A DNA stretch of 64,000 nt from Escherichia coli (GCF_003334255.1 NZ_QOWU01000012.1); one strand, 5' to 3'. Positions 9,619 to 64,000 are shown, counted from the first letter of the stretch. Notes: a model not told the origin generated them from the letters alone. Translations and numbers: made by a program.

Positions 9619-9866
9619 AATATTAAGGGATTTTATGTAAAGAGGCTATCTTACTAATATTTAATGACATTTGCCATTACCGTTTGTGTTCAGGGGTCGT
9701 AATGAGGGCCGTGTGGTTGGTCGTTGAACAGGTGACGTCGCCATCTGTTCAACATTCGTACCCGTGATTTCTCTATAACTATAACTCACAGAACAACTTA
9801 GCGAGGAGCAGAGCGGTACGATCGTGAGAAACCCATTAAAGCACGCTGCAGTGCGTGTCATTGTTA

Positions 9867-9897
9867 GCCAGATGCGGCGTGAACGCTTTATCCGGAC
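9867..9897. repeat. REP element
   Basis: GCCAGATGCGGCGTGAACGCTTTATCCGGAC matches the REP pattern GCC(G/T)GATGCG...CTTATCCGG. Confidence 0.75.
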
Positions 9898-9930
9898 AAC
9901 GATACTGACCGATCGTCTGCAATTAAATCA

Positions 9931-10176
9931 TTACTCATTACCCCATTGATTCAAAAACTCTGCGATCTCATCAATGCGTACGGGATTAATCCCCGCTTCA
10001 GCAGCCATTTCATGTTGGGCTTCTTCGCTGATCTCTTCATTGTTCATCAAACGGGTGAGCAGTAACTGGAAGTAGTGGGCCAGCGGTGTGCGTTCAGCCT
10101 CTGCGACAGGCTCTGCGCATTCGGTCGCGTACTCATCGGCAATATCAAAATATTTTAGCGGGATATCGTGGTTCAT
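9931..10176 (-). CDS. ymjA: Small acidic protein YmjA
   Basis: 81-aa ORF starting [39 protein letters not shown], recognised as YmjA. Confidence 0.88.
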
Positions 10177-10309
10177 TATTTGCCCCTGGGGTTAATGCGC
10201 TAAGCATAAGGGCGGATGATAGCACTCGTGATCCGGGTCATACATCTTTTTATAGTTAATGGCGCGGCGCGTTACCCTCAGGCAGGATAATGCGCCGCGC
10301 ATCCGACTA

Positions 10310-11695
10310 TTACGTTTCACTCACCGGCGTTCTGTCACCATCATACAACGGCACTTTGCGATAGCGGCGGATCAGATACCATAAATATGCGCCGCCTAAC
10401 GAAGCCCATACCAGACCGAGTGTCAGTGACGTTGACTCGAGGTTAACCCACAGCACACCCACCGTCAGCGCGCCAACCAGCGGCATCAGCAAATAGTGGA
10501 AGTGATCCTTCCAGCTTTTATTCATTCCTTTACGCCGCCAGAAATGATTAAACACCGACAGATTCACGAAGGTAAACGCCACCAGAGCACCGAAGTTAAT
10601 TAACGCTGTGGCGGTAACTAAATCGAAGAACAGCGCCGACAACGCGACAATCCCGACCATAATGACGTTGAGTGCCGGAGTCCGCCATTTTGGGTGCACA
10701 TAGCCAAACACCCGCTCCGGAAACACATTGTCACGCCCCATCACATACAGCAGACGCGACACGCTGGCATGTGAAGCCAGGCCAGAGGCTAACGTGTTCA
10801 CAAACGTGGTGCAGAGGAAAATCGACTGGAAGAGCTTGCCGCCGACGTACAGCGCAATTTCAGGCAGTGCGGCATCCGGATCTTTAAAGCGGCTGATATC
10901 GGGAAAGAACAGCTGCATAAAGAACGACGCCGCGATAAAGATAACGCCACCGTAGACCGCCGTCAGGAAGATGGCTTTCGGGATCACGCGTGCGGCGTCC
11001 GGCGTCTCTTCCGAAAGCGTGGTCACCGCATCGAAACCGAGGAAGGAGAAACAGACAATCGTCGCCCCGGTAATAATCGGGATCAGGTGCGCGTTCTCGC
11101 TGATAAACGGCTGAAGTGACCAGACGGTGCCAACGCCTTCTCCTTTATGCAGTCCCTGAACTACCAGGAAGATAAACACCACCATGATGGAGATTTGCAC
11201 CAGTACAAACAGGGTATTGAAGTTAGCGACCAGGTTGACGCTCTTCAGATTCGCGGCGGTTAAAATGGCGACGAAGGTTACCACCCACACCCACGGCGGC
11301 ACTTCCGGGAAGAGGGCGGAGAGATAGATTTTCGCCAACAAGACGTTAATCATCGGCAAAAAGAGATAATCCAGCAGCGATGACCAGCCGACCATAAATC
11401 CGACGTGCGGGTTAATCGACTTTTGCGCGTAGGTATAGGCCGAACCGGCCTCCGGAAACTGGCGAACCAGTTTGCCGTAGCTGATAGCGGTAAACAGCAC
11501 ACCCGCCAGCGCCAGCAAATAGGACGCCGGAACGTGACCGTCGCTAATGCCGGAGACAATACCAAAAGTATCAAATACGGTCATCGGCGTGAGATAGGCC
11601 AGACCCATCATCACCACCTGCCACAATTTCAGTGATTTTCGCAGACGGGTTTTGCCGGGTTGCGCAGCAATATTCAGTGGTGAATTAATAGCCAT
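10310..11695 (-). CDS. puuP: Putrescine importer (APC family)
   Basis: ORF track 10310..11749. The ATG at 11695 ([26 protein letters not shown]) has GGAGG 8 nt upstream and gives 461 aa. The protein is a multi-TM APC permease. Confidence 0.92.
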
Positions 11696-11997: not shown

Positions 11998-13416
11998 TTA
12001 CGCGTTTTTCAACATCCACTCAATTTCTGTTTCTGTGATGAGGCGCTCAAACTGCAACAGCTCATCATTTTTACAGGCGTGATAGACATGGCAGAAGCGT
12101 TCGCCTAAATAGCGGCGCAGGTGATCATTCTCGATAAACTCACCCAGGGCATCGCTCTGGCGAATCGGAAAGGGTAAGCCTTCCTGTTCCAGCCCGTTGC
12201 CTTCGACTTCTTCCTGCAACGGCAGCTCGTTATCAAGGCCATGCAAAATACCGGCAAAAATCGCTGCCATCACCAGATATGGGTTGGCATCGGCACCCGC
12301 CACGCGATATTCCACGCGGTGATTATGACGGTCGCCGCACGGAATACGCAGGGCGACGGTGCGGTTGTTATGGCCCCACGACGCCTGCGTCGGCACATAC
12401 ATTCCCGGCTGGAAGCGGCGATACGAGTTCACGTTTGGTGCCAGCAACGCCATCGACGACGGCATCAGGTCAATCATCCCGGCGAGCATCTTTTTCAGCA
12501 GCGGCGAATCTTCGCCTTCCGCGTCAGAAAGCACGTTCTCGCCACGATTATTTTGCATACTGATATGGATATGCATTCCGCTGCCCGCGTGCTCTTCATA
12601 CGGCTTCGCCATAAAAGTGGCGTGCATCTTATGCTTTTCTGCCATCAGACGCACCAGGCGTTTTAGTGCCAGCGCATCATCGCAGGCTTCCAGCACGTTA
12701 TCAGTATGGTAAAGGTTGATTTCAAACTGACCCGGCGAGGCCTCAGCGACCGCGCCATCTGCCGGAATCAGCTGTAACTGCGCCAGTTCATCAATATCAT
12801 TGAGCACGTCGGCGAAGTGGTTGAGGTTATCAACGGAGTAAACCTGGCTTTGTGTATTGCGGTCATCGGTGCCAGGCGCGCAGGGCGGTTGCAGATACCC
12901 TTCAGCGTCGCGCTGGCGATCCAGTAAATAGAACTCCAGCTCTACCGCTACGACCGGGAACAATCCGCGCTGGCGCAGCTGCTGCCACAGGCGGTTAAGA
13001 ACGTTCCGCGGCTCAACGTCAAAGGGAGCGCCATCTTCATCGACCATGGTCAGGAGCATCTGACCGATAAACTCTGGATCGGCGGCAGAAGGAGTTAAGG
13101 AACCGAGAACAGGAACACAGGTACGATCCGGCTCGCCCATTTCCTGACCCAGACCTGCTTCTTCTACTACGTTGCCCAGAATATCCATTGCAAATACCGA
13201 GGCCGGGAAATAACACCCTTTCTCGAGCTTCTTCAGGCTTGAAACAGGAATACGCTTTCCACGGAAGCAACCATTTAAATCGGTAAGTAAAACATCAACA
13301 TATTGCGTATTCGGGTAGCGCTCCAGGTAGCGTTTCACTTCCTGCGTAAAGGCGCTACCCCGCCTCTCTTCTGACTGCTGAACAAAGTTCTCTACTTCAA
13401 CGATATTGGTTTCCAT
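11998..13416 (-). CDS. puuA: Gamma-glutamylputrescine synthetase (glutamine synthetase family)
   Basis: ORF track 11998..13494. The internal ATG at 13416 (METNIVEVENFVQQSEERRGSAFTQEVKRYL) gives 472 aa. Recognised as PuuA. Confidence 0.93.
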   Translation of the reverse strand: METNIVEVENFVQQSEERRGSAFTQEVKRYLERYPNTQYVDVLLTDLNGCFRGKRIPVSSLKKLEKGCYFPASVFAMDILGNVVEEAGLGQEMGEPDRTCVPVLGSLTPSAADPEFIGQMLLTMVDEDGAPFDVEPRNVLNRLWQQLRQRGLFPVVAVELEFYLLDRQRDAEGYLQPPCAPGTDDRNTQSQVYSVDNLNHFADVLNDIDELAQLQLIPADGAVAEASPGQFEINLYHTDNVLEACDDALALKRLVRLMAEKHKMHATFMAKPYEEHAGSGMHIHISMQNNRGENVLSDAEGEDSPLLKKMLAGMIDLMPSSMALLAPNVNSYRRFQPGMYVPTQASWGHNNRTVALRIPCGDRHNHRVEYRVAGADANPYLVMAAIFAGILHGLDNELPLQEEVEGNGLEQEGLPFPIRQSDALGEFIENDHLRRYLGERFCHVYHACKNDELLQFERLITETEIEWMLKNA

Positions 13417-13459
13417 GATTCTTCGCCTTTGGTTTGTTTTCCGCTCGTTATCAAAGCGT

Positions 13460-13474
13460 AAAATATAATGACCA
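13460..13474. promoter_or_regulatory. Candidate PuuR operator (AAAATATAATGACCA)
   Basis: 14 of 15 nt are identical to the copy at 13632-13646. It matches the PuuR recognition sequence AAAATATAATGAACA as I recall it from the literature. A weaker copy, AAAAATATTGAACA, lies at 13556-13569. Confidence 0.55.
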
Positions 13475-13627
13475 CCATTCGAATCTGTATGCAAACTAAA
13501 TGTTTGTCAAATATTAAATTGAGTTTGCAAAAATGAAAACCCACTGCTAGATTGAAAAAATATTGAACATAAAGGTCATTTAAAGCGCAGTAATGGCGAT
13601 AATTTAGTCCACTTTGTGAGATTGAGC

Positions 13628-14392
13628 ATGGAAAATATAATGAACAATCCGGTTATCGGTGTCGTAATGTGCAGGAACAGGCTTAAGGGTCATGCGACCC
13701 AGACTCTGCAAGAAAAGTACCTGAATGCCATCATCCATGCAGGCGGCTTGCCTATTGCGCTACCACATGCGCTGGCGGAACCGTCATTACTTGAACAACT
13801 TTTGCCGAAACTCGATGGCATTTATCTTCCTGGTAGTCCCAGCAATGTGCAGCCGCACCTATATGGTGAAAACGGCGATGAGCCTGACGCCGATCCCGGG
13901 CGTGATCTTCTGAGCATGGCGATAATTAATGCCGCACTCGAAAGGCGCATCCCCATTTTCGCCATCTGCCGGGGTTTACAAGAACTGGTGGTGGCAACCG
14001 GTGGTTCGTTGCATCGCAAGCTGTGCGAACAGCCTGAATTGCTGGAACATCGGGAAGATCCCGAACTGCCGGTGGAACAGCAATATGCACCGTCGCATGA
14101 AGTTCAGGTTGAAGAGGGGGGATTACTGTCTGCGTTGTTACCTGAATGTAGCAACTTTTGGGTAAACTCTCTACATGGACAAGGGGCGAAGGTCGTTAGC
14201 CCACGGTTGCGTGTTGAAGCTCGCTCGCCGGATGGCTTAGTTGAGGCGGTTAGCGTCATCAATCATCCTTTTGCGCTGGGCGTACAGTGGCACCCGGAAT
14301 GGAACAGTAGCGAGTACGCGCTTTCGCGTATATTGTTCGAGGGCTTTATCACCGCTTGTCAGCACCATATCGCTGAAAAACAGCGACTCTGA
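13628..14392 (+). CDS. puuD: Gamma-glutamyl-gamma-aminobutyrate hydrolase (class I glutamine amidotransferase-like)
   Basis: ORF track 13616..14392. The ATG at 13628 (MENIMNNPVIGVVMCRNRLKGH) gives 254 aa, and a nucleophile-Cys context FAICRGLQ is present. Confidence 0.92.
   Translation: MENIMNNPVIGVVMCRNRLKGHATQTLQEKYLNAIIHAGGLPIALPHALAEPSLLEQLLPKLDGIYLPGSPSNVQPHLYGENGDEPDADPGRDLLSMAIINAALERRIPIFAICRGLQELVVATGGSLHRKLCEQPELLEHREDPELPVEQQYAPSHEVQVEEGGLLSALLPECSNFWVNSLHGQGAKVVSPRLRVEARSPDGLVEAVSVINHPFALGVQWHPEWNSSEYALSRILFEGFITACQHHIAEKQRL
13632..13646. promoter_or_regulatory. Candidate PuuR operator (AAAATATAATGAACA) overlapping the first codons of puuD
   Basis: Exact match to the recalled 15-nt PuuR site, and a near-identical repeat of 13460-13474 at the other end of the divergent puuA/puuD region. 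Confidence 0.55.
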
Positions 14393-14418
14393 CCACTACA
14401 GTTTAAGGAAATGCAAAT

Positions 14419-14976
14419 ATGAGTGATGAGGGACTGGCGCCAGGAAAACGCTTGTCGGAAATCCGCCAGCAGCAGGGGCTTTCACAACGTCGTGCCGCCG
14501 AACTCTCCGGGCTGACTCACAGTGCTATCAGTACGATAGAACAAGATAAAGTCAGCCCTGCCATCAGTACGCTGCAAAAGCTGCTGAAGGTGTATGGTCT
14601 GTCACTCTCGGAATTCTTTTCCGAGCCGGAAAAACCTGATGAGCCGCAGGTCGTCATTAATCAGGACGACTTAATTGAGATGGGTAGTCAGGGTGTGTCA
14701 ATGAAGCTGGTTCATAACGGTAACCCGAATCGCACGCTGGCGATGATCTTTGAAACGTACCAGCCGGGCACAACCACTGGGGAAAGAATTAAGCATCAGG
14801 GTGAGGAAATAGGCACTGTACTGGAAGGTGAAATTGTTCTGACGATTAATGGTCAGGATTACCACCTCGTCGCGGGGCAAAGTTATGCCATTAATACCGG
14901 CATCCCGCACAGTTTCAGTAATACGTCGGCAGGTATTTGCCGAATTATCAGCGCCCATACGCCCACCACGTTTTAA
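14419..14976 (+). CDS. puuR: Putrescine-utilisation repressor (XRE HTH + cupin)
   Basis: 185-aa ORF with the HTH region LSEIRQQQGLSQRRAAELSGLTHSAISTIEQDK. Recognised as PuuR. Confidence 0.94.
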   Translation: MSDEGLAPGKRLSEIRQQQGLSQRRAAELSGLTHSAISTIEQDKVSPAISTLQKLLKVYGLSLSEFFSEPEKPDEPQVVINQDDLIEMGSQGVSMKLVHNGNPNRTLAMIFETYQPGTTTGERIKHQGEEIGTVLEGEIVLTINGQDYHLVAGQSYAINTGIPHSFSNTSAGICRIISAHTPTTF

Positions 14977-14992
14977 TCTTTTTGTTCTGTAA

Positions 14993-15017
14993 GCCGGGTA
15001 AGCGCAATGCGCCCGGC
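14993..15017. repeat. REP-like palindrome (GCCGGGTAAGCGCAATGCGCCCGGC)
   Basis: GCCGGG...CCCGGC inverted repeat read directly, just after the puuR stop. Confidence 0.6.
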
Positions 15018-15034
15018 AATCTATACACAAAATC

Positions 15035-15150
15035 ATTCAAGTTGCATCAAGGCGGCAAGTGAGCGAATCCCGATGAGCTTACTCAGGTAAGTGATTCGGG
15101 GGAGCGAACGCAGCCAAGGCAGAGGCGGCTTGAAGGATGAAGTGTATATA
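15035..15150. repeat. ERIC (IRU) element
   Basis: GCGAATCCCGATGAGCTTAC and GGTAAGTGATTCGGGGGAGCGAACG match the ERIC1R-complement and ERIC2 primer regions (GTGAATCCCCAGGAGCTTACAT / AAGTAAGTGACTGGGGTGAGCG). The element has a long imperfect palindrome. Confidence 0.8.
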
Positions 15151-15250
15151 AAGAATGTCGCCAGAAATAAACGGGCATACGGCCCGGGGATCTCTGCGCC
15201 CTGACGTTCACAAACTGCATATATCTGATAGACGTGAAACAGGAGTCATA

Positions 15251-16738
15251 ATGAATTTTCATCATCTGGCTTACTGGCAGGATAAAGCGTTAAGTCTCGC
15301 CATTGAAAACCGCTTATTTATTAACGGTGAATATACTGCTGCGGCGGAAAATGAAACCTTTGAAACCGTTGATCCGGTCACCCAGGCACCGCTGGCGAAA
15401 ATTGCCCGCGGCAAGAGCGTCGATATCGACCGTGCGATGAGCGCAGCACGCGGCGTATTTGAACGCGGCGACTGGTCACTCTCTTCTCCGGCTAAACGTA
15501 AAGCGGTACTGAATAAACTCGCCGATTTAATGGAAGCCCACGCCGAAGAGCTGGCACTGCTGGAAACTCTCGACACCGGCAAACCGATTCGTCACAGTCT
15601 GCGTGATGATATTCCCGGCGCGGCGCGCGCCATTCGCTGGTACGCCGAAGCGATCGACAAAGTGTATGGCGAAGTGGCGACCACCAGTAGCCATGAGCTG
15701 GCGATGATCGTGCGTGAACCGGTCGGCGTGATTGCCGCCATCGTGCCGTGGAACTTCCCGCTGTTGCTGACTTGCTGGAAACTCGGCCCGGCGCTGGCGG
15801 CGGGAAACAGCGTGATTCTAAAACCGTCTGAAAAATCACCGCTCAGTGCGATTCGTCTCGCGGGGCTGGCGAAAGAAGCAGGCTTGCCGGATGGTGTGTT
15901 GAACGTGGTGACGGGTTTTGGTCATGAAGCCGGGCAGGCGCTGTCGCGTCATAACGATATCGACGCCATTGCCTTTACCGGTTCAACCCGTACCGGGAAA
16001 CAGCTGCTGAAAGATGCGGGCGACAGCAACATGAAACGCGTCTGGCTGGAAGCGGGCGGCAAAAGCGCCAACATCGTTTTCGCTGACTGCCCGGATTTGC
16101 AACAGGCGGCAAGCGCCACCGCAGCAGGCATTTTCTACAACCAGGGACAGGTGTGCATCGCCGGAACGCGCCTGTTGCTGGAAGAGAGCATCGCCGATGA
16201 ATTCTTAGCCCTGTTAAAACAGCAGGCGCAAAACTGGCAGCCGGGCCATCCACTTGATCCCGCAACCACCATGGGCACCTTAATCGACTGCGCCCACGCC
16301 GACTCGGTCCATAGCTTTATTCGGGAAGGCGAAAGCAAAGGGCAACTGTTGTTGGATGGCCGTAACGCCGGGCTGGCTGCCGCCATCGGCCCGACCATCT
16401 TTGTGGATGTGGACCCGAATGCGTCCTTAAGTCGCGAAGAGATTTTCGGTCCGGTGCTGGTGGTCACGCGTTTCACATCAGAAGAACAGGCGCTACAGCT
16501 TGCCAACGACAGCCAGTACGGCCTTGGCGCGGCGGTATGGACGCGCGACCTCTCCCGCGCGCACCGCATGAGCCGACGCCTGAAAGCCGGTTCCGTCTTC
16601 GTCAATAACTACAACGACGGCGATATGACCGTGCCGTTTGGCGGCTATAAGCAGAGCGGCAACGGTCGCGACAAATCCCTGCATGCCCTTGAAAAATTCA
16701 CTGAACTGAAAACCATCTGGATAAGCCTGGAGGCCTGA
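15251..16738 (+). CDS. puuC: Gamma-glutamyl-gamma-aminobutyraldehyde dehydrogenase (NAD(P)-dependent aldehyde dehydrogenase)
   Basis: ORF track 15155..16738. The ATG at 15251 (MNFHHLAYWQDKALSLAIENRLFING) is preceded by AGGAG and gives 495 aa. The upstream extension lies in the ERIC element. Confidence 0.93.
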   Translation: MNFHHLAYWQDKALSLAIENRLFINGEYTAAAENETFETVDPVTQAPLAKIARGKSVDIDRAMSAARGVFERGDWSLSSPAKRKAVLNKLADLMEAHAEELALLETLDTGKPIRHSLRDDIPGAARAIRWYAEAIDKVYGEVATTSSHELAMIVREPVGVIAAIVPWNFPLLLTCWKLGPALAAGNSVILKPSEKSPLSAIRLAGLAKEAGLPDGVLNVVTGFGHEAGQALSRHNDIDAIAFTGSTRTGKQLLKDAGDSNMKRVWLEAGGKSANIVFADCPDLQQAASATAAGIFYNQGQVCIAGTRLLLEESIADEFLALLKQQAQNWQPGHPLDPATTMGTLIDCAHADSVHSFIREGESKGQLLLDGRNAGLAAAIGPTIFVDVDPNASLSREEIFGPVLVVTRFTSEEQALQLANDSQYGLGAAVWTRDLSRAHRMSRRLKAGSVFVNNYNDGDMTVPFGGYKQSGNGRDKSLHALEKFTELKTIWISLEA

Positions 16739-22196: not shown

Positions 22197-22511
22197 ATGT
22201 TTAAAAAAGGCTTACTTGCTCTGGCACTGGTGTTTTCACTGCCCGTTTTCGCCGCTGAACACTGGATCGATGTTCGTGTTCCAGAGCAGTATCAGCAAGA
22301 GCACGTTCAGGGGGCCATCAATATTCCCCTGAAGGAAGTGAAAGAGCGCATTGCCACCGCCGTTCCGGATAAAAACGACACCGTGAAAGTGTATTGCAAT
22401 GCCGGACGCCAGTCAGGGCAAGCAAAAGAGATCCTTAGCGAGATGGGATATACCCACGTTGAGAACGCCGGTGGCCTGAAAGACATCGCAATGCCGAAGG
22501 TCAAAGGTTAA
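22197..22511 (+). CDS. pspE: Periplasmic thiosulfate sulfurtransferase (rhodanese)
   Basis: 104-aa ORF with signal peptide MFKKGLLALALVFSLPVFA and the rhodanese active-site loop CNAGRQS. Confidence 0.95.
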   Translation: MFKKGLLALALVFSLPVFAAEHWIDVRVPEQYQQEHVQGAINIPLKEVKERIATAVPDKNDTVKVYCNAGRQSGQAKEILSEMGYTHVENAGGLKDIAMPKVKG

Positions 22512-22526
22512 AAGAATTCACCATGA

Positions 22527-22552
22527 GCGGCGCTTATGCGCCGTTTTTTTTT
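22527..22552 (+). terminator. Rho-independent terminator after pspE
   Basis: GCGGCGC-TTAT-GCGCCG stem-loop followed by nine T residues. Confidence 0.85.
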
Positions 22553-22696
22553 CTGTCACACCTTATTTACATCCCCATAGATTATTTGCGTCAGCTCACA
22601 AATACGCTTTTTCCCTGGTAAAAAATGATTTCCTGCGTGACTAAAACCCTTGTGCTCAATTGACAGTTTATTTTCTGCGGAGTAGTCTCTCGTTTC

Positions 22697-22711
22697 ATGG
22701 GACCGCTACCA
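22697..22711. promoter_or_regulatory. LacI-family operator candidate (YcjW site) upstream of ycjM
   Basis: ATGGGACCGCTACCA. The core TGGGACCGCTACCA fits the LacI/GalR pattern TGnnAnCGnTnnCA. An identical 15-mer recurs at 32625-32639. Confidence 0.6.
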
Positions 22712-22723
22712 CGGAAAGGCAAC

Positions 22724-24403
22724 ATGAAACAGAAAATTACGGATTACCTGGACGAAATCTACGGTGGAACATTTACCGCAACTCATTTACAGAAACTTGT
22801 AACGCGTCTTGAGAGTGCGAAACGATTAATTACACAGCGACGTAAAAAACACTGGGATGAAAGTGATGTCGTGTTAATTACCTATGCCGATCAATTTCAC
22901 AGCAATGATTTAAAACCATTACCCACATTTAATCAGTTTTACCATCAATGGCTGCAAAGCATTTTTTCACATGTTCATTTGTTGCCGTTTTATCCATGGT
23001 CATCTGATGATGGCTTTTCGGTAATTGATTATCATCAGGTCGCCAGTGAAGCGGGGGAGTGGCAGGATATTCAGCAACTCGGTGAATGCAGTCATTTAAT
23101 GTTTGATTTTGTCTGCAACCATATGTCGGCAAAAAGTGAATGGTTTAAAAACTATTTACAACAGCATCCAGGTTTTGAAGATTTTTTTATTGCCGTTGAC
23201 CCGCAAACCGATCTCAGCGCCGTCACTCGCCCGCGTGCGTTACCGTTATTAACGCCATTCCAGATGCGCGATCATTCAACGCGCCATTTATGGACCACCT
23301 TTAGTGACGATCAAATTGACCTGAATTACCGTAGCCCTGAAGTGTTGCTGGCGATGGTGGATGTTTTACTCTGTTACCTTGCGAAAGGTGCTGAGTATGT
23401 CCGCCTGGATGCCGTTGGCTTTATGTGGAAAGAGCCGGGAACAAGCTGCATCCATCTGGAAAAAACACATCTGATTATCAAACTGTTACGGTCGATTATT
23501 GATAACGTTGCGCCAGGTACAGTGATCATTACCGAGACCAATGTTCCGCATAAAGACAACATTGCTTACTTTGGCGCAGGCGATGACGAAGCACATATGG
23601 TGTACCAGTTCTCGCTGCCGCCACTGGTGCTGCATGCGGTGCAAAAACAGAACGTTGAGGCGCTTTGTGCGTGGGCGCAAAACCTGACACTACCTTCCAG
23701 CAACACCACCTGGTTTAACTTCCTCGCCTCTCACGATGGCATCGGGCTAAACCCGCTACGGGGCTTGTTGCCTGAAAGCGAAATATTAGAGCTGGTCGAG
23801 GCGTTACAGCAGGAAGGTGCATTAGTAAACTGGAAAAATAATCCCGACGGTACACGCAGTCCGTATGAAATAAATGTGACCTATATGGATGCGTTAAGCC
23901 GCCGTGAGAGTAGCGATGAAGAACGTTGCGCCAGGTTTATCCTTGCCCATGCGATTTTGTTAAGTTTCCCCGGTGTGCCAGCGATATATATTCAAAGTAT
24001 TCTTGGCTCGCGTAATGATTACGCAGGTGTCGAAAAACTCGGATATAACCGTGCGATTAACCGTAAAAAATATCACAGTAAAGAGATAACCCGAGAACTG
24101 AACGATGAAGCTACATTAAGGCATGCGGTATATCATGAGTTGTCGCGTTTAATTACACTTCGTCGCAGCCATAACGAGTTTCATCCGGATAATAATTTTA
24201 CCATTGATACGATTAATTCATCCGTAATGCGTATTCAAAGAAGTAACGCTGATGGTAATTGTCTGACTGGATTGTTTAATGTCAGTAAAAATATTCAGCA
24301 TGTAAATATTACTAATCTGCATGGTCGGGATCTGATTAGTGAAGTTGATATATTGGGTAATGAAATAACGCTGCGCCCCTGGCAGGTTATGTGGATTAAA
24401 TAA
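22724..24403 (+). CDS. ycjM: Glucosylglycerate phosphorylase (GH13 sucrose-phosphorylase-like)
   Basis: ORF track 22697..24403. The ATG at 22724 (MKQKITDYLDEIYGGTFTATHLQKL) gives 559 aa. Recognised as YcjM. Confidence 0.92.
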   Translation: MKQKITDYLDEIYGGTFTATHLQKLVTRLESAKRLITQRRKKHWDESDVVLITYADQFHSNDLKPLPTFNQFYHQWLQSIFSHVHLLPFYPWSSDDGFSVIDYHQVASEAGEWQDIQQLGECSHLMFDFVCNHMSAKSEWFKNYLQQHPGFEDFFIAVDPQTDLSAVTRPRALPLLTPFQMRDHSTRHLWTTFSDDQIDLNYRSPEVLLAMVDVLLCYLAKGAEYVRLDAVGFMWKEPGTSCIHLEKTHLIIKLLRSIIDNVAPGTVIITETNVPHKDNIAYFGAGDDEAHMVYQFSLPPLVLHAVQKQNVEALCAWAQNLTLPSSNTTWFNFLASHDGIGLNPLRGLLPESEILELVEALQQEGALVNWKNNPDGTRSPYEINVTYMDALSRRESSDEERCARFILAHAILLSFPGVPAIYIQSILGSRNDYAGVEKLGYNRAINRKKYHSKEITRELNDEATLRHAVYHELSRLITLRRSHNEFHPDNNFTIDTINSSVMRIQRSNADGNCLTGLFNVSKNIQHVNITNLHGRDLISEVDILGNEITLRPWQVMWIK

Positions 24404-24416
24404 AAAGGAACATCTC

Positions 24417-25709
24417 ATGATTAAATCAAAAATCGTGCTGTTATCAGCACTGGTTTCATGCGCCCTGATTTCAGGCTGTAAAGAAGAAAATAAAACGAAT
24501 GTATCCATCGAATTTATGCATTCTTCGGTGGAGCAGGAGCGCCAGGCCGTTATCAGAAAATTGATTGCCCGTTTTGAAAAAGAAAACCCTGGCATCACCG
24601 TTAAGCAAGTGCCCGTGGAAGAAGATGCTTATAACACTAAAGTCATTACTCTTTCACGTAGCGGTTCGCTGCCGGAAGTGATCGAAACCAGCCATGACTA
24701 CGCCAAAGTGATGGACAAAGAGCAGCTTATCGATCGCAAAGCGGTTGCCACAGTCATCAGCAACGTTGGTGAAGGCGCGTTTTACGATGGCGTACTGCGT
24801 ATTGTGCGTACCGAAGATGGTAGCGCATGGACCGGTGTTCCTGTCAGCGCCTGGATTGGCGGTATCTGGTATCGCAAAGATGTGCTGGCAAAAGCGGGGC
24901 TTGAGGAGCCGAAAAACTGGCAACAGCTGCTGGACGTTGCACAGAAACTGAATGACCCGGCGAATAAAAAATACGGCATTGCGCTGCCTACAGCAGAAAG
25001 CGTGTTGACGGAACAATCCTTCTCCCAGTTTGCGTTATCCAACCAGGCTAACGTCTTTAACGCCGAAGGCAAAATCACCCTTGATACACCAGAGATGATG
25101 CAGGCACTGACCTATTACCGCGACCTTGCTGCCAACACTATGCCGGGTTCTAACGACATCATGGAAGTGAAAGACGCCTTTATGAACGGCACCGCGCCGA
25201 TGGCGATTTACTCCACCTATATCCTTCCGGCTGTGATTAAAGAAGGCGACCCGAAAAACGTCGGTTTCGTGGTGCCAACCGAGAAAAACTCTGCGGTCTA
25301 CGGCATGTTGACCTCGCTGACCATTACCGCCGGGCAAAAGACCGAAGAGACGGAAGCAGCAGAAAAATTTGTCACCTTTATGGAGCAGGCAGACAACATT
25401 GCCGACTGGGTGATGATGTCGCCAGGTGCTGCGCTGCCGGTGAATAAAGCGGTGGTGACTACCGCCACCTGGAAAGACAACGACGTTATTAAGGCGCTGG
25501 GTGAACTACCGAATCAGCTAATCGGTGAACTGCCAAATATTCAGGTTTTTGGCGCAGTAGGGGATAAAAACTTTACCCGCATGGGTGATGTGACGGGTTC
25601 TGGCGTGGTGAGTTCAATGGTGCATAACGTCACCGTGGGTAAAGCCGATCTCTCTACTACGCTGCAAGCGAGCCAGAAAAAACTGGATGAACTGATCGAA
25701 CAGCACTAA
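24417..25709 (+). CDS. ycjN: Sugar ABC transporter periplasmic binding lipoprotein
   Basis: 430-aa ORF with the lipobox LISGC. Recognised as YcjN. Confidence 0.93.
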   Translation: MIKSKIVLLSALVSCALISGCKEENKTNVSIEFMHSSVEQERQAVIRKLIARFEKENPGITVKQVPVEEDAYNTKVITLSRSGSLPEVIETSHDYAKVMDKEQLIDRKAVATVISNVGEGAFYDGVLRIVRTEDGSAWTGVPVSAWIGGIWYRKDVLAKAGLEEPKNWQQLLDVAQKLNDPANKKYGIALPTAESVLTEQSFSQFALSNQANVFNAEGKITLDTPEMMQALTYYRDLAANTMPGSNDIMEVKDAFMNGTAPMAIYSTYILPAVIKEGDPKNVGFVVPTEKNSAVYGMLTSLTITAGQKTEETEAAEKFVTFMEQADNIADWVMMSPGAALPVNKAVVTTATWKDNDVIKALGELPNQLIGELPNIQVFGAVGDKNFTRMGDVTGSGVVSSMVHNVTVGKADLSTTLQASQKKLDELIEQH

Positions 25710-44500: not shown

Positions 44501-45400
44501 ATGAAGCGTGAAGAGATCGCTGATCTGATGGCGTTTGTCGTCGTTGCAGAGGAGCGTAGCTTCACTCGAGCAGCAGCCCGCCTGAGCATGGCGCAGTCAG
44601 CTTTAAGCCAGATAGTGCGCCGTATAGAAGAACGATTGGGATTGCGGCTTCTGACCCGAACCACGCGCAGTGTTGTACCCACTGAAGCGGGCGAGCATCT
44701 TTTGTCTGTTCTTGGCCCTATGTTGCATGACATAGATTCAGCCCTGGCATCCCTGAGCGATCTGCAGAACCGCCCATCCGGGACAATACGTATTACTACT
44801 GTAGAACATGCAGCAAAAACGATATTGTTACCAGCAATGCGCACATTCCTGAAATCGCATCCTGAAATTGATATTCAGCTCACCATTGATTATGGTTTGA
44901 CCGATGTCGTTTCTGAACGTTTTGATGCAGGCGTCCGTCTGGGTGGGGAGATGGATAAAGATATGATCGCCATTCGAATCGGGCCAGATATACCAATGGC
45001 TATTGTTGGCTCACCGGATTATTTTTCTCGCCGAAGTGTTCCAACGTCAGTGTCACAATTAATAGATCATCAGGCAATTAATTTGTATCTTCCCACATCG
45101 GGTACAGCAAATCGCTGGAGATTAATACGCGGTGGACGTGAAGTTCGTGTTCGCATGGAAGGTCAGCTTTTACTGAATACGATAGACCTGATCATTGATG
45201 CTGCAATTGATGGGCATGGATTGGCGTATCTACCTTATGATCAGGTTGAGCGGGCTATTAAAGAAAAAAAACTGATACGTGTTTTGGATAAATTCACACC
45301 AGATTTACCCGGTTATCACCTGTACTATCCACACCGTCGACATGCTGGCTCGGCATTCTCATTATTTATAGATAGGCTGAAGTATAAAGGTGCTGTTTAG
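44501..45400 (+). CDS. pgrR: LysR-family regulator of peptidoglycan recycling genes
   Basis: 299-aa ORF with the N-terminal LysR HTH FVVVAEERSFTRAAARLSMAQSALSQIVRRIEERLG. Recognised as YcjZ/PgrR. Confidence 0.92.
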   Translation: MKREEIADLMAFVVVAEERSFTRAAARLSMAQSALSQIVRRIEERLGLRLLTRTTRSVVPTEAGEHLLSVLGPMLHDIDSALASLSDLQNRPSGTIRITTVEHAAKTILLPAMRTFLKSHPEIDIQLTIDYGLTDVVSERFDAGVRLGGEMDKDMIAIRIGPDIPMAIVGSPDYFSRRSVPTSVSQLIDHQAINLYLPTSGTANRWRLIRGGREVRVRMEGQLLLNTIDLIIDAAIDGHGLAYLPYDQVERAIKEKKLIRVLDKFTPDLPGYHLYYPHRRHAGSAFSLFIDRLKYKGAV

Positions 45401-45649
45401 CACTACTTGCTGATACATTAATTTAATTCTTCTCTTAACGTATTCTCAGTTCCTTTCAACGTTTTGGTCATTTTTTATTCTTCGTACAATGGCGACAGAT
45501 GCTGATTATGATACCGAAAACGGGTTTGAACGTGCGAAGCCCGAACGTAGTGTTCGGAGTTCTATGTGCTTTACCGCATTTTGGAGACTATTATTTACAC
45601 TAAATCTGATTTGATATATTGATACTTAAAACATTTGATGCTTCCTTTG

Positions 45650-45679
45650 TCACTTTTTTGATGGAAGTTGTTTGCATTT
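45650..45679 (+). repeat. Right copy of the ~30-nt direct repeat (TCACTTTTTTGATGGAAGTTGTTTGCATTT)
   Basis: See 43203-43233. It lies 58-87 nt upstream of the mppA ATG. Confidence 0.85.
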
Positions 45680-45700
45680 CTTTAAGGCGAAACAAATAAT
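45672..45700 (+). promoter_or_regulatory. Candidate sigma-70 promoter for mppA (TTGCAT-N17-AATAAT)
   Basis: Hexamers and the 17-nt spacer were read directly. The -35 element lies inside the right repeat copy. This is a sequence-only prediction in AT-rich DNA. Confidence 0.3.
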
Positions 45701-45736
45701 TACGCATCAATTTTAATGTCGGTTAGAGGGAAACTT

Positions 45737-47350
45737 ATGAAGCACTCTGTTTCAGTCACGTGTTGTGCGCTGTTGGTCAGCAGCATTTCTCTTTCGTATG
45801 CTGCAGAAGTTCCGAGCGGCACAGTACTGGCAGAGAAGCAGGAGCTGGTGCGCCACATTAAAGATGAGCCTGCGTCGCTGGATCCCGCTAAAGCCGTGGG
45901 CCTGCCAGAGATTCAGGTCATTCGCGATCTGTTTGAAGGTCTGGTGAATCAGAACGAAAAAGGGGAGATTGTCCCCGGCGTTGCGACTCAGTGGAAAAGT
46001 AATGACAACCGTATCTGGACTTTTACCCTGCGCGATAACGCAAAATGGGCGGATGGCACACCGGTAACGGCGCAAGATTTTGTCTACAGCTGGCAACGTC
46101 TGGTGGACCCAAAAACATTGTCGCCATTTGCATGGTTTGCCGCGCTGGCGGGAATCAACAACGCACAGGCGATTATTGATGGTAAAGCTACGCCTGACCA
46201 GCTTGGCGTCACCGCAGTTGATGCCCATACTTTGAAAATTCAGCTTGATAAACCGTTGCCGTGGTTTGTGAATTTAACCGCTAACTTTGCCTTCTTCCCG
46301 GTGCAAAAAGCCAACGTAGAAAGCGGTAAAGAGTGGACGAAACCCGGAAATCTGATCGGCAATGGCGCTTATGTTCTTAAAGAGCGCGTAGTCAATGAAA
46401 AACTGGTCGTGGTACCGAATACCCATTATTGGGATAACGCCAAAACGGTACTGCAAAAAGTGACCTTCCTGCCAATTAATCAGGAATCCGCAGCCACTAA
46501 GCGTTACCTCGCGGGGGATATTGATATCACCGAATCCTTCCCGAAAAATATGTATCAGAAGCTGTTGAAGGATATTCCGGGGCAGGTTTATACGCCGCCG
46601 CAGCTCGGGACCTATTATTATGCGTTTAACACGCAAAAAGGGCCGACGGCAGATCAGCGCGTTCGTCTGGCATTAAGTATGACGATAGATCGCCGCCTGA
46701 TGACCGAAAAAGTATTAGGGACGGGCGAAAAGCCAGCGTGGCATTTTACACCAGATGTTACCGCGGGATTTACGCCGGAACCTTCGCCGTTTGAACAAAT
46801 GAGTCAGGAAGAACTGAATGCGCAGGCAAAAACTTTGTTGAGCGCAGCTGGTTATGGTCCGCAAAAACCGCTGAAGCTGACGCTTTTGTATAACACTTCA
46901 GAAAACCATCAAAAAATTGCGATTGCTGTAGCATCGATGTGGAAAAAGAACCTTGGCGTAGATGTTAAATTGCAAAATCAGGAATGGAAAACCTATATCG
47001 ATAGCCGTAACACCGGCAATTTTGATGTTATCCGCGCCTCGTGGGTGGGGGATTATAATGAACCCTCCACTTTCCTGACATTATTAACGTCAACGCATTC
47101 AGGAAATATTTCACGCTTTAACAATCCGGCATATGACAAAGTTCTGGCCCAGGCATCGACGGAAAATACCGTTAAAGCGCGTAATGCCGATTACAACGCG
47201 GCAGAAAAAATCCTCATGGAGCAAGCACCGATTGCACCAATTTATCAATATACCAATGGACGATTAATCAAGCCGTGGCTGAAAGGTTATCCCATTAATA
47301 ATCCTGAAGATGTGGCGTACAGTCGGACTATGTATATTGTGAAGCATTGA
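45737..47350 (+). CDS. mppA: Periplasmic murein tripeptide-binding protein (OppA paralogue)
   Basis: ORF track 45716..47350. The ATG at 45737 (MKHSVSVTCCALLVSSISLSYA signal peptide) gives 537 aa. Confidence 0.94.
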   Translation: MKHSVSVTCCALLVSSISLSYAAEVPSGTVLAEKQELVRHIKDEPASLDPAKAVGLPEIQVIRDLFEGLVNQNEKGEIVPGVATQWKSNDNRIWTFTLRDNAKWADGTPVTAQDFVYSWQRLVDPKTLSPFAWFAALAGINNAQAIIDGKATPDQLGVTAVDAHTLKIQLDKPLPWFVNLTANFAFFPVQKANVESGKEWTKPGNLIGNGAYVLKERVVNEKLVVVPNTHYWDNAKTVLQKVTFLPINQESAATKRYLAGDIDITESFPKNMYQKLLKDIPGQVYTPPQLGTYYYAFNTQKGPTADQRVRLALSMTIDRRLMTEKVLGTGEKPAWHFTPDVTAGFTPEPSPFEQMSQEELNAQAKTLLSAAGYGPQKPLKLTLLYNTSENHQKIAIAVASMWKKNLGVDVKLQNQEWKTYIDSRNTGNFDVIRASWVGDYNEPSTFLTLLTSTHSGNISRFNNPAYDKVLAQASTENTVKARNADYNAAEKILMEQAPIAPIYQYTNGRLIKPWLKGYPINNPEDVAYSRTMYIVKH

Positions 47351-47400: not shown

Positions 47401-48432
47401 TTAGCGACCCTGTTCCGGCGGTGTAATGTTATCCATATACAGCGTCTGGCTGGGGAAGGCAAAGTCCGCGCCGTGTGACTGTACAATATCGATAATCTTC
47501 AAATAAACGTCTTGCTGTGCAGCAAGCCATTCAGCCCATACCGTGGTTTTGGTAAAGCAATAAACCATAATATTCAATGAAGAGTCAGCAAACTGGTTGA
47601 AATAAACCAGTAAGGTTTGTCGCTGGTCGATGGCCGGGTGATTTTTCAGCATCTCACGTACAGCTTCGACAATAACGCCCACTTTTGCCGCATCCTCATA
47701 ACGTAAACCAATGGTCGTGGTAATGCGGCGGTTGGTCATTCGTCCTGGGTTTTCTACGCTGATCGACGAAAACAGCGAGTTCGGTACGTACAATGGACGA
47801 TTATCAAAGGTCGTAATTTTGGTAATTCGCCAGCCAATTTCCGCTACTGTACCTTCGATATTTCTGTCCGGTGAACGGATCCAGTCGCCAATACTGAAAG
47901 GACGGTCGAAATAGAGCATAATCCCGGAAAAGAAGTTACTCAGAATATCTTTACCGGCCATACCGACAGCCAGACCACCAATACCACCAAAGGTCAGCAA
48001 GCCAGAAAGGCTCATGCCGAAATGTTCGCCATAAAGCAGAACAAGCACCACAATAATGGTGATTTTGATGATACGCGACATAATCCGCGCACTGGTGATA
48101 TCGCGACCTTTTTTAATCTGCTGTTTTTCAAACTGATTAATCAGCAGAAATAGCTTAATCGTCAGAATAACCGCAATCAGGGACGTACAGATAAAATCGA
48201 TAACGCCTGGGGTGATAAATTTGAGTTTATAGTTTTCTATAACATAATTAATAATGCTACCAACAGCACTGATAATTATGGTGTAGATTAAAAATTGCAC
48301 CGCATGGAATAAAAATCCTTTTCTTTTACGATTTCCACGGCGAAACCAAAAGCTCATCAGAATCAATGCTGCGCAGCTACCGAAAATAATGACCAGATTA
48401 AGCGCATTATTTGTAAACAGTTCAGCGATCAT
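47401..48432 (-). CDS. ynaI: MscS-family low-conductance mechanosensitive channel
   Basis: 343-aa ORF with N-terminal TM helices and an MscS beta-domain. Recognised as YnaI. Confidence 0.94.
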
Positions 48433-48675
48433 TGTTTTATCAGGCTCCTCCAGATAATTGTCGTCATGCCGGAAACCCCTGGCGGGGCTATTTTACCGCG
48501 ACAATTCATTCAGATCATCAATAGTCAGGGAAGGAAGTAGCAACATTAGCTAACTAATCAATGCGTTGATTGTAAATCCAGCTAAGAGGTGAGGTTTTCA
48601 GAGCAGACAACGGTGAAATGTCATGGTATTGTTACGTTTAGGTAACAAGAAATTTGTCTGCACAAGGATTACATC

Positions 48676-48933
48676 ATGATTATGGCGAAACTGAAGTCAG
48701 CGAAAGGGAAGAAATTTCTCTTTGGTTTGTTGGCGGTTTTCATTATTGCGGCGTCGGTTGTGACTCGCGCGACCATCGGCGGCGTTATAGAACAGTACAA
48801 TATTCCGCTGTCTGAGTGGACGACATCAATGTATGTGATTCAGTCATCGATGATTTTTGTTTATAGCCTGGTCTTTACTGTGTTGCTGGCAATCCCGTTG
48901 GGAATTTATTTCCTTGGCGGCGAAGAGCAGTAA
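48676..48933 (+). CDS. ynaJ: Small inner-membrane protein (DUF2534)
   Basis: 85-aa ORF with two predicted TM segments. Recognised as YnaJ. Confidence 0.9.
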   Translation: MIMAKLKSAKGKKFLFGLLAVFIIAASVVTRATIGGVIEQYNIPLSEWTTSMYVIQSSMIFVYSLVFTVLLAIPLGIYFLGGEEQ

Positions 48934-62323: not shown

Positions 62324-63259
62324 TTATTTCACTTCAACCACATTCAGCCGTAACTCATCCAACTGATTTTCATCTTCTTCTGGCTGCCAGCCCGCCGGTT
62401 GTAGTGGGATCTCTTCGCGATCAAACGCCAGATCACCCCCGTTAACCACTTCAGAACCGTGGGTAATGCCTTTGAAATCGAACAGGTTGGTATCGCACAG
62501 ATGCGACGGCACCACATTCTGCATCGCGCTGAACATCGTCTCGATACGCCCTGGATAACGTTTATCCCAGTCACGCAACATGTCAGCAATCACCTGACGT
62601 TGCAGGTTAGGCTGTGAACCGCACAGGTTGCACGGAATAATCGGGAACGCTTTTGCATCGGCAAATCGCTGAATATCTTTCTCGCGGCAGTAGGCCAGCG
62701 GACGAATAACGATATGTTTGCCATCATCGCTCATCAGTTTCGGAGGCATACCTTTCATCTTGCCGCCGTAGAACATATTTAAGAACAACGTTTGCAGGAT
62801 ATCGTCACGATGGTGGCCCAACGCGATCTTCGTCGCCCCCAGTTCCGTTGCGGTACGATAAAGGATACCGCGACGAAGGCGAGAACACAGTGAGCAAGTG
62901 GTTTTGCCCTCTGGAATCTTCTCTTTCACGATACCGTAAGTGTTCTCTTCGACAATCTTGTACTCAACGCCCAGCTTTTCAAGATACTCGGGCAGAACGT
63001 GTTCCGGGAAGCCCGGTTGCTTTTGATCGAGGTTAACAGCTACCAGCGAAAAATTGATTGGCGCGCTTTGCTGCAAATTGCGCAGAATCTCCAGCATGGT
63101 ATAGCTGTCTTTACCCCCGGAGAGGCAAACCATGATGCGATCGCCTTCTTCAATCATATTGAAGTCAGCAATGGCTTCGCCCACGTTACGACGCAGACGT
63201 TTTTGTAATTTGTTCAGGTTGTATTGTTCTTTCTTTGTAACTTGTTGATTTTCTGGCAT
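62324..63259 (-). CDS. ttcA: tRNA 2-thiocytidine(32) synthetase (PP-loop ATPase)
   Basis: ORF track 62324..63289. The ATG at 63259 ([24 protein letters not shown]) gives 311 aa. The PP-loop SGGKDS and CxxC motifs are present. Confidence 0.93.
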
Positions 63260-63541
63260 TATATTTTTCTCAAGACCCTTCAGGGGCATATAAGAGGCAA
63301 ATTTTAGTAAAGTACTTACCCAATGTTAAGCGAAAAATATGTAGTTTCTCTTAGTTGAGCATCTTTAAATCGCTGCGTAAGTATCTTAACATTGTTGTTA
63401 ACGTCTATAGTTATTTCACTGATACATGAGTTTAAATTAAAATGTGTTAAAATATTTATTTGGTTTAAGATGATTTTTCTTTATTATGTAGCGGGATTTA
63501 TATCCCATTGTAAAGAAAAGTTGACATTTATTGGGGGTAAC

Positions 63542-63928
63542 GTGAGCGATATTCTGTCATGGATTGAGGTTGGTAAACTTTCAGCTGAAAGGGATGATAA
63601 TCTTGTACATTACTTCTTTGATAATGGGGTGCTTCAAAGCGTAATTAATACTCCATCATCTTTTTTAATTCTTGGAAGAAAAGGTGCTGGTAAAACAGCT
63701 CTTTTTCGTTATCTAACAAATAATCCCAGACAATATCTAAAAGAGAATGAAGTATTAGTATCTTTATCTTTTGAAGACTACAATTGGCGAGTTCATTCTC
63801 TGCTCAGTAATGAATATGCTGCTGAGTCATTAGCATATAAACAGTCTTGGAAATTTGTAATTTTAGTTGAAGTTATTAAGGCTTACTTAAAATATTTAGA
63901 AGAAAAAAGATTAACAATACCTAGGTAA
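63542..63928 (+). pseudogene. 5' fragment (127 native codons) of an unrecognised P-loop NTPase gene, truncated by IS1
   Basis: ORF track 63392..63928. The likely start is GTG at 63542 (GGGGG 6 nt upstream), reading (M)SDILSWIEVGKLSAERDDNLVHYFFDNGVLQSVINTPSSFLILGRKGAGKTALFRYL, with Walker A GRKGAGKT at residues 45-52. The frame is closed by a TAA that lies inside the IS1 terminal repeat. The sequence is AT-rich. Confidence 0.7.
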
Positions 63929-64000
63929 TGACTCCAACTTATTGATAGTGTTTTATGTTCAGATAATGCCCGATGACTTTGTCATGCAGCTCCACCGATT
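63924..64000 (-). mobile_element. insB: IS1, right-end inverted repeat and 3' end of insB; the element continues beyond the window
   Basis: GGTAATGACTCCAACTTATTGATAGTGTTTTATGTTCAGATAATGCCCGATGACTTTGTCATGCAGCTCCACCGATT is the reverse complement of the IS1 3' terminus (...AATCGGTGGAGCTGCATGACAAAGTCATCGGGCATTATCTGAACATAAAACACTATCAATAAGTTGGAGTCATTACC) as I remember it. Confidence 0.93.

Follow-up and report, generated by a model that had tools for sequence, protein, structure and literature searches.

The stretch of DNA considered here is a 64,000-nucleotide segment of Escherichia coli (GCF_003334255.1, NZ_QOWU01000012.1), called the window, whose right end reads, in order, dbpA (+ strand), ttcA (− strand), and a segment of steeply lower G+C content that holds the first 127 codons of a P-loop ATPase gene before running into the insertion sequence IS1. 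An earlier note on this DNA had remarked on a sharp drop in composition just beyond ttcA, and the drop is as described. The G+C content is 30.8% in 63261-63923 versus 50.9% for the whole window, the lowest of all 663-nt stretches in the 64 kb, and counting by program returns exactly the values that had been obtained by hand (11/60 at 63421-63480 and 21/60 at 63601-63660). The segment is accessory, as had been surmised, and not conserved core DNA: a megablast search found 63261-63923 in only 6 of 5,426 complete E. coli genomes, always at 100% identity, and no complete E. coli genome beyond these six carriers matched it. It forms the left part of a 2.7-kb, one-gene relic of a Rac-family integrative prophage lying in the ttcA attachment site, and its gene appears to be a distant relative of DS-41, a validated anti-phage protein.

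The structure of this island is visible in one of the carriers, strain G1/2, which is identical to the window over 63261-64000. Past the IS1 in G1/2 come the remaining 387 codons of the ATPase gene, the frameshifted 3' remnant of a tyrosine integrase gene, attR, uspF, and ompN. The same anatomy is found in WP7-S17-ESBL-04, MB06232, and PEC408, and in the first two of these the gene is intact, encoding 514 amino acids (aa) in the same one-gene setting; the protein of WP7-S17-ESBL-04 is WP_197971544.1. The island is flanked by direct repeats of 51 nt that share an exact core of 26 nt, TTGTTCAGGTTGTATTGTTCTTTCTT, at 63210-63235 of the window; in the uninterrupted allele (L001), the attR copy lies 2,683 bp from attL, at L001 22633-22683, beyond the window. 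The integrase stump has about 88% DNA identity to intR of Rac. The element thus shows both features of the Rac family, att direct repeats at the 5' end of ttcA and an intR-type integrase, in keeping with the suggestion that the Rac attachment site is involved. It is a one-gene relic, because only the remainder of the gene, the integrase stump, and the second att repeat are left beyond the IS1, and it is immobile, because the integrase is truncated and frameshifted. The ATPase gene is consequently cargo, located at the attL-integrase junction of an otherwise lost Rac-family element.

The 5' end of ttcA is the known attL of Rac, and a similar swap of the TtcA N-terminus has been described for that prophage (PMC4632033). 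In the window, TtcA begins with MPENQQV, and the native MSQNQEI is left as an orphan start at the distal att copy. Furthermore, the distal 225 bp, from the second repeat to uspF, are 98-99% identical to the native 5' region of ttcA in Rac-free strains. To judge from these matches, the first codons of ttcA (window 63236-63259) derive from the integrated element. The earlier note was correct that the segment is horizontally acquired; the foreign DNA, however, starts inside ttcA at the att core and not at 63290. Rac of K-12 uses the same attachment site and has an altered TtcA N-terminus, an arrangement like the ttcA/ttcC' pair. In K-12 Rac, only 51 bp lie between the ttcA start and the intR stop codon, whereas the island has 1.9 kb of leader and ATPase gene there, and nearly the entire prophage has been lost from the island. 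Outside the att repeat, the DNA immediately upstream of uspF (22763-22809) has a 74%-identical second copy of a 47-nt stretch of the integrase stump (L001 22068-22114), which may be left over from an earlier integration there.

The ATPase gene starts with GTG, 5 nt behind a GGGGG Shine-Dalgarno sequence, and its Walker A motif, GRKGAGKT (residues 45-52), is encoded by nt 63674-63697. The open reading frame (ORF), the peptide, and the motif are those that had been read from the sequence earlier, as is the interruption by IS1 after codon 127. Beyond 63922, where the native reading stops, the frame continues as Arg-stop inside the IS1, which starts at 63924 with the end GGTAATGACTCCAACTTATTGAT and whose transposase gene, on the minus strand, runs past the end of the window. 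IS1 was recognized here as a 768-bp element with terminal inverted repeats of about 23 bp and a 9-bp target duplication. All of these are present in G1/2: relative to the uninterrupted allele, the insertion is 777 bp, that is, 768 bp of IS1 plus a 9-bp duplication, its inverted-repeat ends read GGTAATGACTCC... and GGTGATGCTGCC..., and CAATACCTA stands on both flanks. In this identical locus, RefSeq labels it 'IS1-like element IS1A family transposase'. A 9-bp duplication had been anticipated, but as AATACCTAG; because the IS1 begins at 63924, the duplicated sequence is instead CAATACCTA. The IS1 in G1/2 is a simple insertion with nothing deleted. Given this clean insertion and the one-gene island of the intact strains, the idea that the fragment opens a larger locus, the rest of which was deleted or lies beyond the IS1, has to be abandoned. 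The coordinates are collected in the table.

Table. Features at the right end of the window
Feature	Position	Strand	Basis
ttcA, tRNA 2-thiocytidine synthetase	62324-63259	−	ORF list; RefSeq annotation of identical sequence in G1/2, WP7-S17-ESBL-04
attL, left copy of 51-nt direct repeat	63210-63260	.	Repeat search on uninterrupted allele (L001), core placed in window
AT-rich leader of ATPase gene, 281 nt, ~27-31% G+C	63261-63541	+	
ATPase gene, 5' fragment, codons 1-127 of 514, Sll1717 family	63542-63922	+	NF047389 score
IS1 target-site duplication, left copy, 9 bp, CAATACCTA	63915-63923	.	G1/2 (L002) versus uninterrupted allele (L001)
IS1 end, first 77 bp of 768, GGTAATGACTCC... inverted-repeat end	63924-64000	−	Sequence; RefSeq annotation of G1/2

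The fragment in the window has no Walker B motif, sensor motifs, lid, or C-terminal domain, all of which are encoded past the IS1; the Walker B residues D231, D234, and E235 and an RPRD motif lie downstream of the break. Because the IS1 parts Walker A from the remaining protein, the window copy is a pseudogene, dead in this strain. By RefSeq annotation, the codon-127 insertion is apparently also present in G6/7 and G8. PEC408 has a second, independent IS1 near codon 271, with its own 9-bp duplication and again 777 bp in all (L004 7100-7880, equal to L001 21092-21100). A 1.5-kb gene carried by only six complete genomes has been hit by IS1 on two separate occasions. IS1 favours AT-rich targets, and the two hits may reflect either this preference or a cost of the gene.

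The databases already contain the gene: in all six carriers, RefSeq annotates it as 'P-loop ATPase, Sll1717 family'. On the corresponding NCBIfam model, NF047389 (curated cutoff 75 bits), the intact allele scores 263.6 bits, with residues 11-503 aligned to model positions 2-454 of 454, and the 128-aa fragment of the window reaches 75.4 bits by itself. With 58.6 bits (E 5e-16), NF053860 ('DS41_1 anti-phage protein') comes next among the NCBIfam models. DS-41 ('AAA2', WP_033812887.1) is a single gene of 502 aa, validated in 2026 in the DefensePredictor study, where it gave E. coli protection from phages that included Bas63 and Bas19 (PMC13092281). Relatives of DS-41 also carry the NCBI name 'Sll1717 family'; one of them, P0121, which is 99% identical to the published DS-41, scores 97.6 bits on NF047389 and 414 bits on NF053860, and true DS-41 relatives score 391-414 bits on the latter. 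By these scores, the window's gene and DS-41 represent two distantly related clades of one catalogued family; what is new is an additional member of that family, in a clade sister to DS-41. Common to both are a lone gene of about 500 aa, a score above the NF047389 cutoff, a patchy spread across phyla, a GxxGAGK[ST] Walker A, an hhhhD[RK]hDE Walker B, an [SR]PR[ED]hI motif, and no recognisable effector domain. In contrast, the N- and C-terminal regions of the two are not demonstrably similar, and the clades are separate.

There are weak ORC1-type matches in the NCBIfam scan, and PF24389 (ORC/Cdc6-like) is hit below its gathering threshold of 27 bits by both the full-length protein (23.7 bits) and the fragment (25 bits); some homologues are precomputed as PF24389. 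Among the PHROGs, the protein matches phrog_13260, a family of unknown function, over its full length. A PADLOC match of the fragment to DpdH was judged unconvincing. Solved structures searched by sequence gave no significant match, and literature searches on 'Sll1717' and on a link between ORC/Cdc6 and defence found none.

An AlphaFold2 model was made on the 96%-identical Salmonella allele (predicted local distance difference test [pLDDT] 84.3, predicted template modelling score [pTM] 0.83). Its fold matches SSO1545 (2fna) and PAB2304 (2qen), both 'archaeal ATPases', as well as Cdc6/Orc1, BrxC, TnsC, and MuB; the matches to STAND proteins and RdrA are weaker. By this model, the intact stand-alone protein of 514 aa is predicted to be an AAA+ ATPase with an ORC/Cdc6-like fold. 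Across 60 homologues, no variation is seen in Walker A (G45-T52), in FDRIDE, the NACHT-like Walker B with its residues D231, D234, and E235, in R274, which follows strand 4, or in the lid motif MRPRD. A large helical insert of about 140 residues (~80-220) precedes Walker B, and a C-terminal domain of about 140 residues (~375-514) closes the protein. A nuclease, protease, NADase, TIR, or pore/membrane domain was not recognised anywhere in the full-length sequence. Identity to SSO1545, PAB2304, and Cdc6/Orc1 is only 10-14%, and the ATPase differs from ORC/Cdc6-type proteins in its much larger helical insert between strand 2 and Walker B, in its NACHT-like Walker B (DRIDE), and in giving no sign of a role at replication origins. 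It also differs from known immune ATPases: BrxC of BREX and RdrA of RADAR act with partner genes, whereas this ATPase has none, and Avs proteins have fused effector and repeat-sensor domains, whereas it has no extra domains. Neither the N-terminal effector nor the C-terminal TPR, LRR, or WD40 sensor of STAND Avs/NLR proteins was found in it.

A 96%-identical protein is encoded at the same ttcA site in several lineages of Salmonella enterica. Between E. coli and Salmonella, the nucleotide identity of the ATPase gene is 92.6%, its synonymous divergence (dS) is 0.375, and its ratio of nonsynonymous to synonymous divergence (dN/dS) is 0.04. The neighbouring chromosomal genes are far more diverged: ttcA is 81.7% identical (dS 2.7, dN/dS 0.011), dbpA 76.5% (dS 2.2, dN/dS 0.039), and uspF 78.0% (dS 2.3, dN/dS 0.027), and local BLAST alignments agree with this picture of the ATPase gene versus its flanks. 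Judged by these divergences, the gene was exchanged between E. coli and Salmonella long after the two species split, and it has stayed under strong purifying selection, even in relics; where intact, it is a working gene. In the Salmonella loci (L005-L007), the ATPase gene (10001-11545) is followed by a gene for a 1,140-aa DUF4765 protein (12268-15690); a small EamA/Multi_Drug_Res-type protein is also encoded there, and neither is present at the E. coli site.

Full-length homologues, which the earlier note had proposed to look for together with conserved neighbours, do exist: proteins of about 511 aa, 55-60% identical, are found in Planctomycetota, Bacteroidota, Chlorobi, Verrucomicrobia, Vibrio, and Pseudomonas. 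The conserved neighbours do not; many homologues lie in housekeeping contexts, and when the ORFs within 6 kb were clustered in 41 loci, no partner gene was conserved and only lepA recurred, at five loci. The gene is in this respect the orphan, stand-alone P-loop nucleoside triphosphatase (NTPase) that it had been taken for, and, as with DS-41, a one-gene island is joined by no shared neighbour family in the 41 loci. A multi-gene system was considered and rejected, as no neighbour family was conserved either in these loci or in a Pfam scan of 17 further ones.

Some of the homologues travel on mobile DNA. In lambdoid prophages of Erwinia and of a metagenome, the gene occupies an integrase-proximal accessory slot. 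In Vibrio cholerae (L008-L010, 10001-11536), a CTX-like filamentous prophage adjoining rtxA has a 55%-identical homologue at its end, zot lying about 1.1 kb upstream of it; this is roughly the place where ctxAB lies in CTX phage. An 82%-identical copy is carried by the IncF conjugative plasmid pKGB1a of Klebsiella variicola (L072, 7001-8542), about 1.3 kb from pifC and from a gene for a 735-aa P-loop NTPase, the latter at the position of PifA, the T7-exclusion protein of the F plasmid. Another homologue lies in a Ketobacter island with Cas1, HEPN-AbiU2, and BrnTA, and homologues are present on 9 IMG/VR viral contigs. In addition, a few distant, longer relatives (P0300, P0329, and P0390) are fused to a C-terminal GT4-conflict glycosyltransferase, to two EAD7 adaptor domains, or to an N-terminal cold-shock domain. 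GT4-conflict and EAD7 domains were defined in biological-conflict systems, and the fused domains may hint at the target of the stand-alone form. A still more distant relative, 26% identical over residues 215-507 and annotated as a hypothetical or ATP-binding protein, is encoded by more than 100 conjugative or mobilisable enterobacterial plasmids, many of them of about 50 kb.

Taken together, these results have led to the reading that the intact gene encodes a single-gene anti-phage or anti-mobile-element immunity protein, carried, like DS-41, as accessory cargo of prophages and plasmids. A probability of roughly 60% seems appropriate for it. A defence role of the intact allele is plausible, and it is a reasonable lead because the gene shares NF047389 with the validated DS-41. 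However, a number of observations weigh against this reading. To judge from its profile score, the ATPase clade is not a DS-41 equivalog, since 58.6 bits is far from the equivalog cutoff of NF053860, which is 370 bits. BLASTP of the ATPase against DS-41 is barely significant and aligns little beyond Walker A, and hhalign of the two clade alignments gives 67% probability over residues 226-440 only; because both are weak, the link to DS-41 rests on the NCBIfam models. The match to PADLOC PDC-M28C was set aside, being partial (residues 204-339, E 4e-9), to an unvalidated candidate, and without partner genes. A tblastn search of 50,697 GenBank phage records found no relative, the phage-borne copies being limited to prophages and viral contigs. 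More than 100 residues, some in the C-terminal region, are invariant across phyla, which would be unusual for a sensor engaged in an arms race. Finally, homologues are solitary among housekeeping genes in Flavobacterium, Microvirga, and Crateriforma; the Pfam scan of the 17 further loci, covering 138 neighbour proteins, found mostly housekeeping families and none with more than two occurrences; and at five alphaproteobacterial loci (L040, L041, L044, L045, and L052, ~8100-11500) the homologue lies directly downstream of lepA. These five, at 43-47% identity and in the same orientation as lepA, comprise three loci from named genera of the marine roseobacter group, one from a Paracoccaceae metagenome-assembled genome (MAG), and one from an unclassified Pseudomonadota MAG. 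The stable chromosomal position beside lepA is unlike the prophage contexts.

Several of these same points would suit a cellular, non-immune ATPase with a housekeeping-like or stress role, which mobile elements would move now and then and for which the location at ttcA would be incidental. Identity of 55-60% across phyla with more than 100 invariant residues, solitary housekeeping contexts in environmental bacteria, and the stable site downstream of lepA are all what such a protein might show. Nevertheless, we consider this role unlikely. The gene's spread is extremely patchy, with 53 loci in a pattern-limited scan of one genome each of 185,579 species, 3,174 representatives among 1.84 billion, and the six carriers in E. 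coli; its transfer between E. coli and Salmonella is clear from a dS of 0.375 versus more than 2 for the genes around it; and its G+C content is low, 35% in a 51% genome. Furthermore, some relatives are fused to conflict-system domains, and one family member, DS-41, has a proven anti-phage phenotype (PMC13092281).

A slightly less likely alternative is that the ATPase serves the mobile element itself, for example as an ORC/Cdc6-like initiator or loader of replication, in partition or maintenance, or by regulating the carrier prophage or plasmid. Its fold is nearest to ORC/Cdc6, TnsC, and MuB, proteins that load DNA machinery or direct it to its target, the weak ORC1-type matches of the NCBIfam scan run the same way, and its presence in prophages, a filamentous phage, and an IncF plasmid would be natural for such a factor. 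However, the Erwinia carrier prophage has replication genes of its own (Phage_rep_O and DnaB), the gene sits in accessory slots outside the replication modules, and many copies are found by themselves among housekeeping genes, away from any element. The relics in E. coli and Salmonella are also difficult to reconcile with service to an element, as they kept the gene under selection (dN/dS 0.04) after the element had decayed. Least likely, and in our view improbable, is that the gene is a costly or toxic cargo, akin to abortive-infection or addiction genes, which is counter-selected in E. coli so that the two independent IS1 insertions (codon 127 and near codon 271) among only six carriers would be adaptive losses: the island is the most AT-rich DNA of its region and IS1 prefers such DNA, two carriers keep the gene intact, purifying selection has been long-term, and a cost would in any case be compatible with defence, abortive-infection genes being typically costly.

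If the intact gene does encode an immunity protein, a mechanism can be suggested from the fold and motifs only. The protein would be an ATP-bound, ORC/Cdc6- or STAND-like switch, built from Walker A, FDRIDE, Arg274, and the RPRD sensor-2-like motif, and its helical insert would sit where AAA+ proteins of the initiator clade have an insert that contacts DNA. An infection cue would lead to ATP-dependent assembly on nucleic acid, as in ORC/Cdc6, TnsC, MuB, and BrxC. Since the protein has no nuclease, protease, NADase, or pore domain, this assembly would act as the effector and block replication or packaging of phage DNA. That an ATP-dependent assembly on nucleic acid blocks phage DNA transactions in this way is speculation drawn from the predicted structure. 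One may go further and imagine the core Sll1717 clade, with its proteins of about 511 aa, as effector-less immune ATPases whose ORC/TnsC-like assembly stops replication or packaging of phage or plasmid DNA and which recognise an invariant feature of invading DNA, or of a conserved host machine, in place of a fast-evolving phage protein. Such recognition would explain why the whole protein, including its C-terminal domain, is conserved, and the defence logic would be unlike that of the known STAND systems, in which a sensor is coupled to a nuclease, NADase, or pore; in this full form, the idea is a long shot.

For the strain that supplied the window, the consequences are small, as its copy is a pseudogene within the remnant of a decayed prophage and has already been named in RefSeq. 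A modest lead is the unusually conserved clade, sister to DS-41, whose members are carried as cargo at prophage ends, by a filamentous phage, and by an F-type plasmid. Should the intact allele defend its host, the way in which an effector-less ORC/Cdc6-like ATPase does so would be a further mechanism of bacterial immunity. The island also indicates that the attL-integrase junction of Rac-type prophages can house accessory cargo and that such cargo can outlast its prophage under purifying selection.

The leader of the ATPase gene has some features of its own. An inverted repeat had been noted in it as 9 bp long; the repeat is real, and it is in fact a perfect one of 10 nt, with arms CAATGTTAAG at 63321-63330 and CTTAACATTG at 63385-63394. 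Four 9-mer inverted repeats are found in the 281 nt, compared with a mean of 0.3 in mononucleotide shuffles. An extended −10-like sequence, TGTTAAAAT, is present at 63445-63453, as had been reported, but as evidence for a promoter it was rejected, since such sites are at chance level in the AT-rich stretch (2 found versus 2.1 expected from shuffles). The leader is 86.6% identical to that of the Salmonella copy and is unconserved in the more distant prophage copies; the 10-nt inverted repeat is kept solely in the Salmonella copy of the island. Elsewhere in the window, patches below 40% G+C, taken in 663-nt windows, occur at ~22500-24700, 45000-45800, and 48000-48800, all of them above the ttcA island in G+C content.

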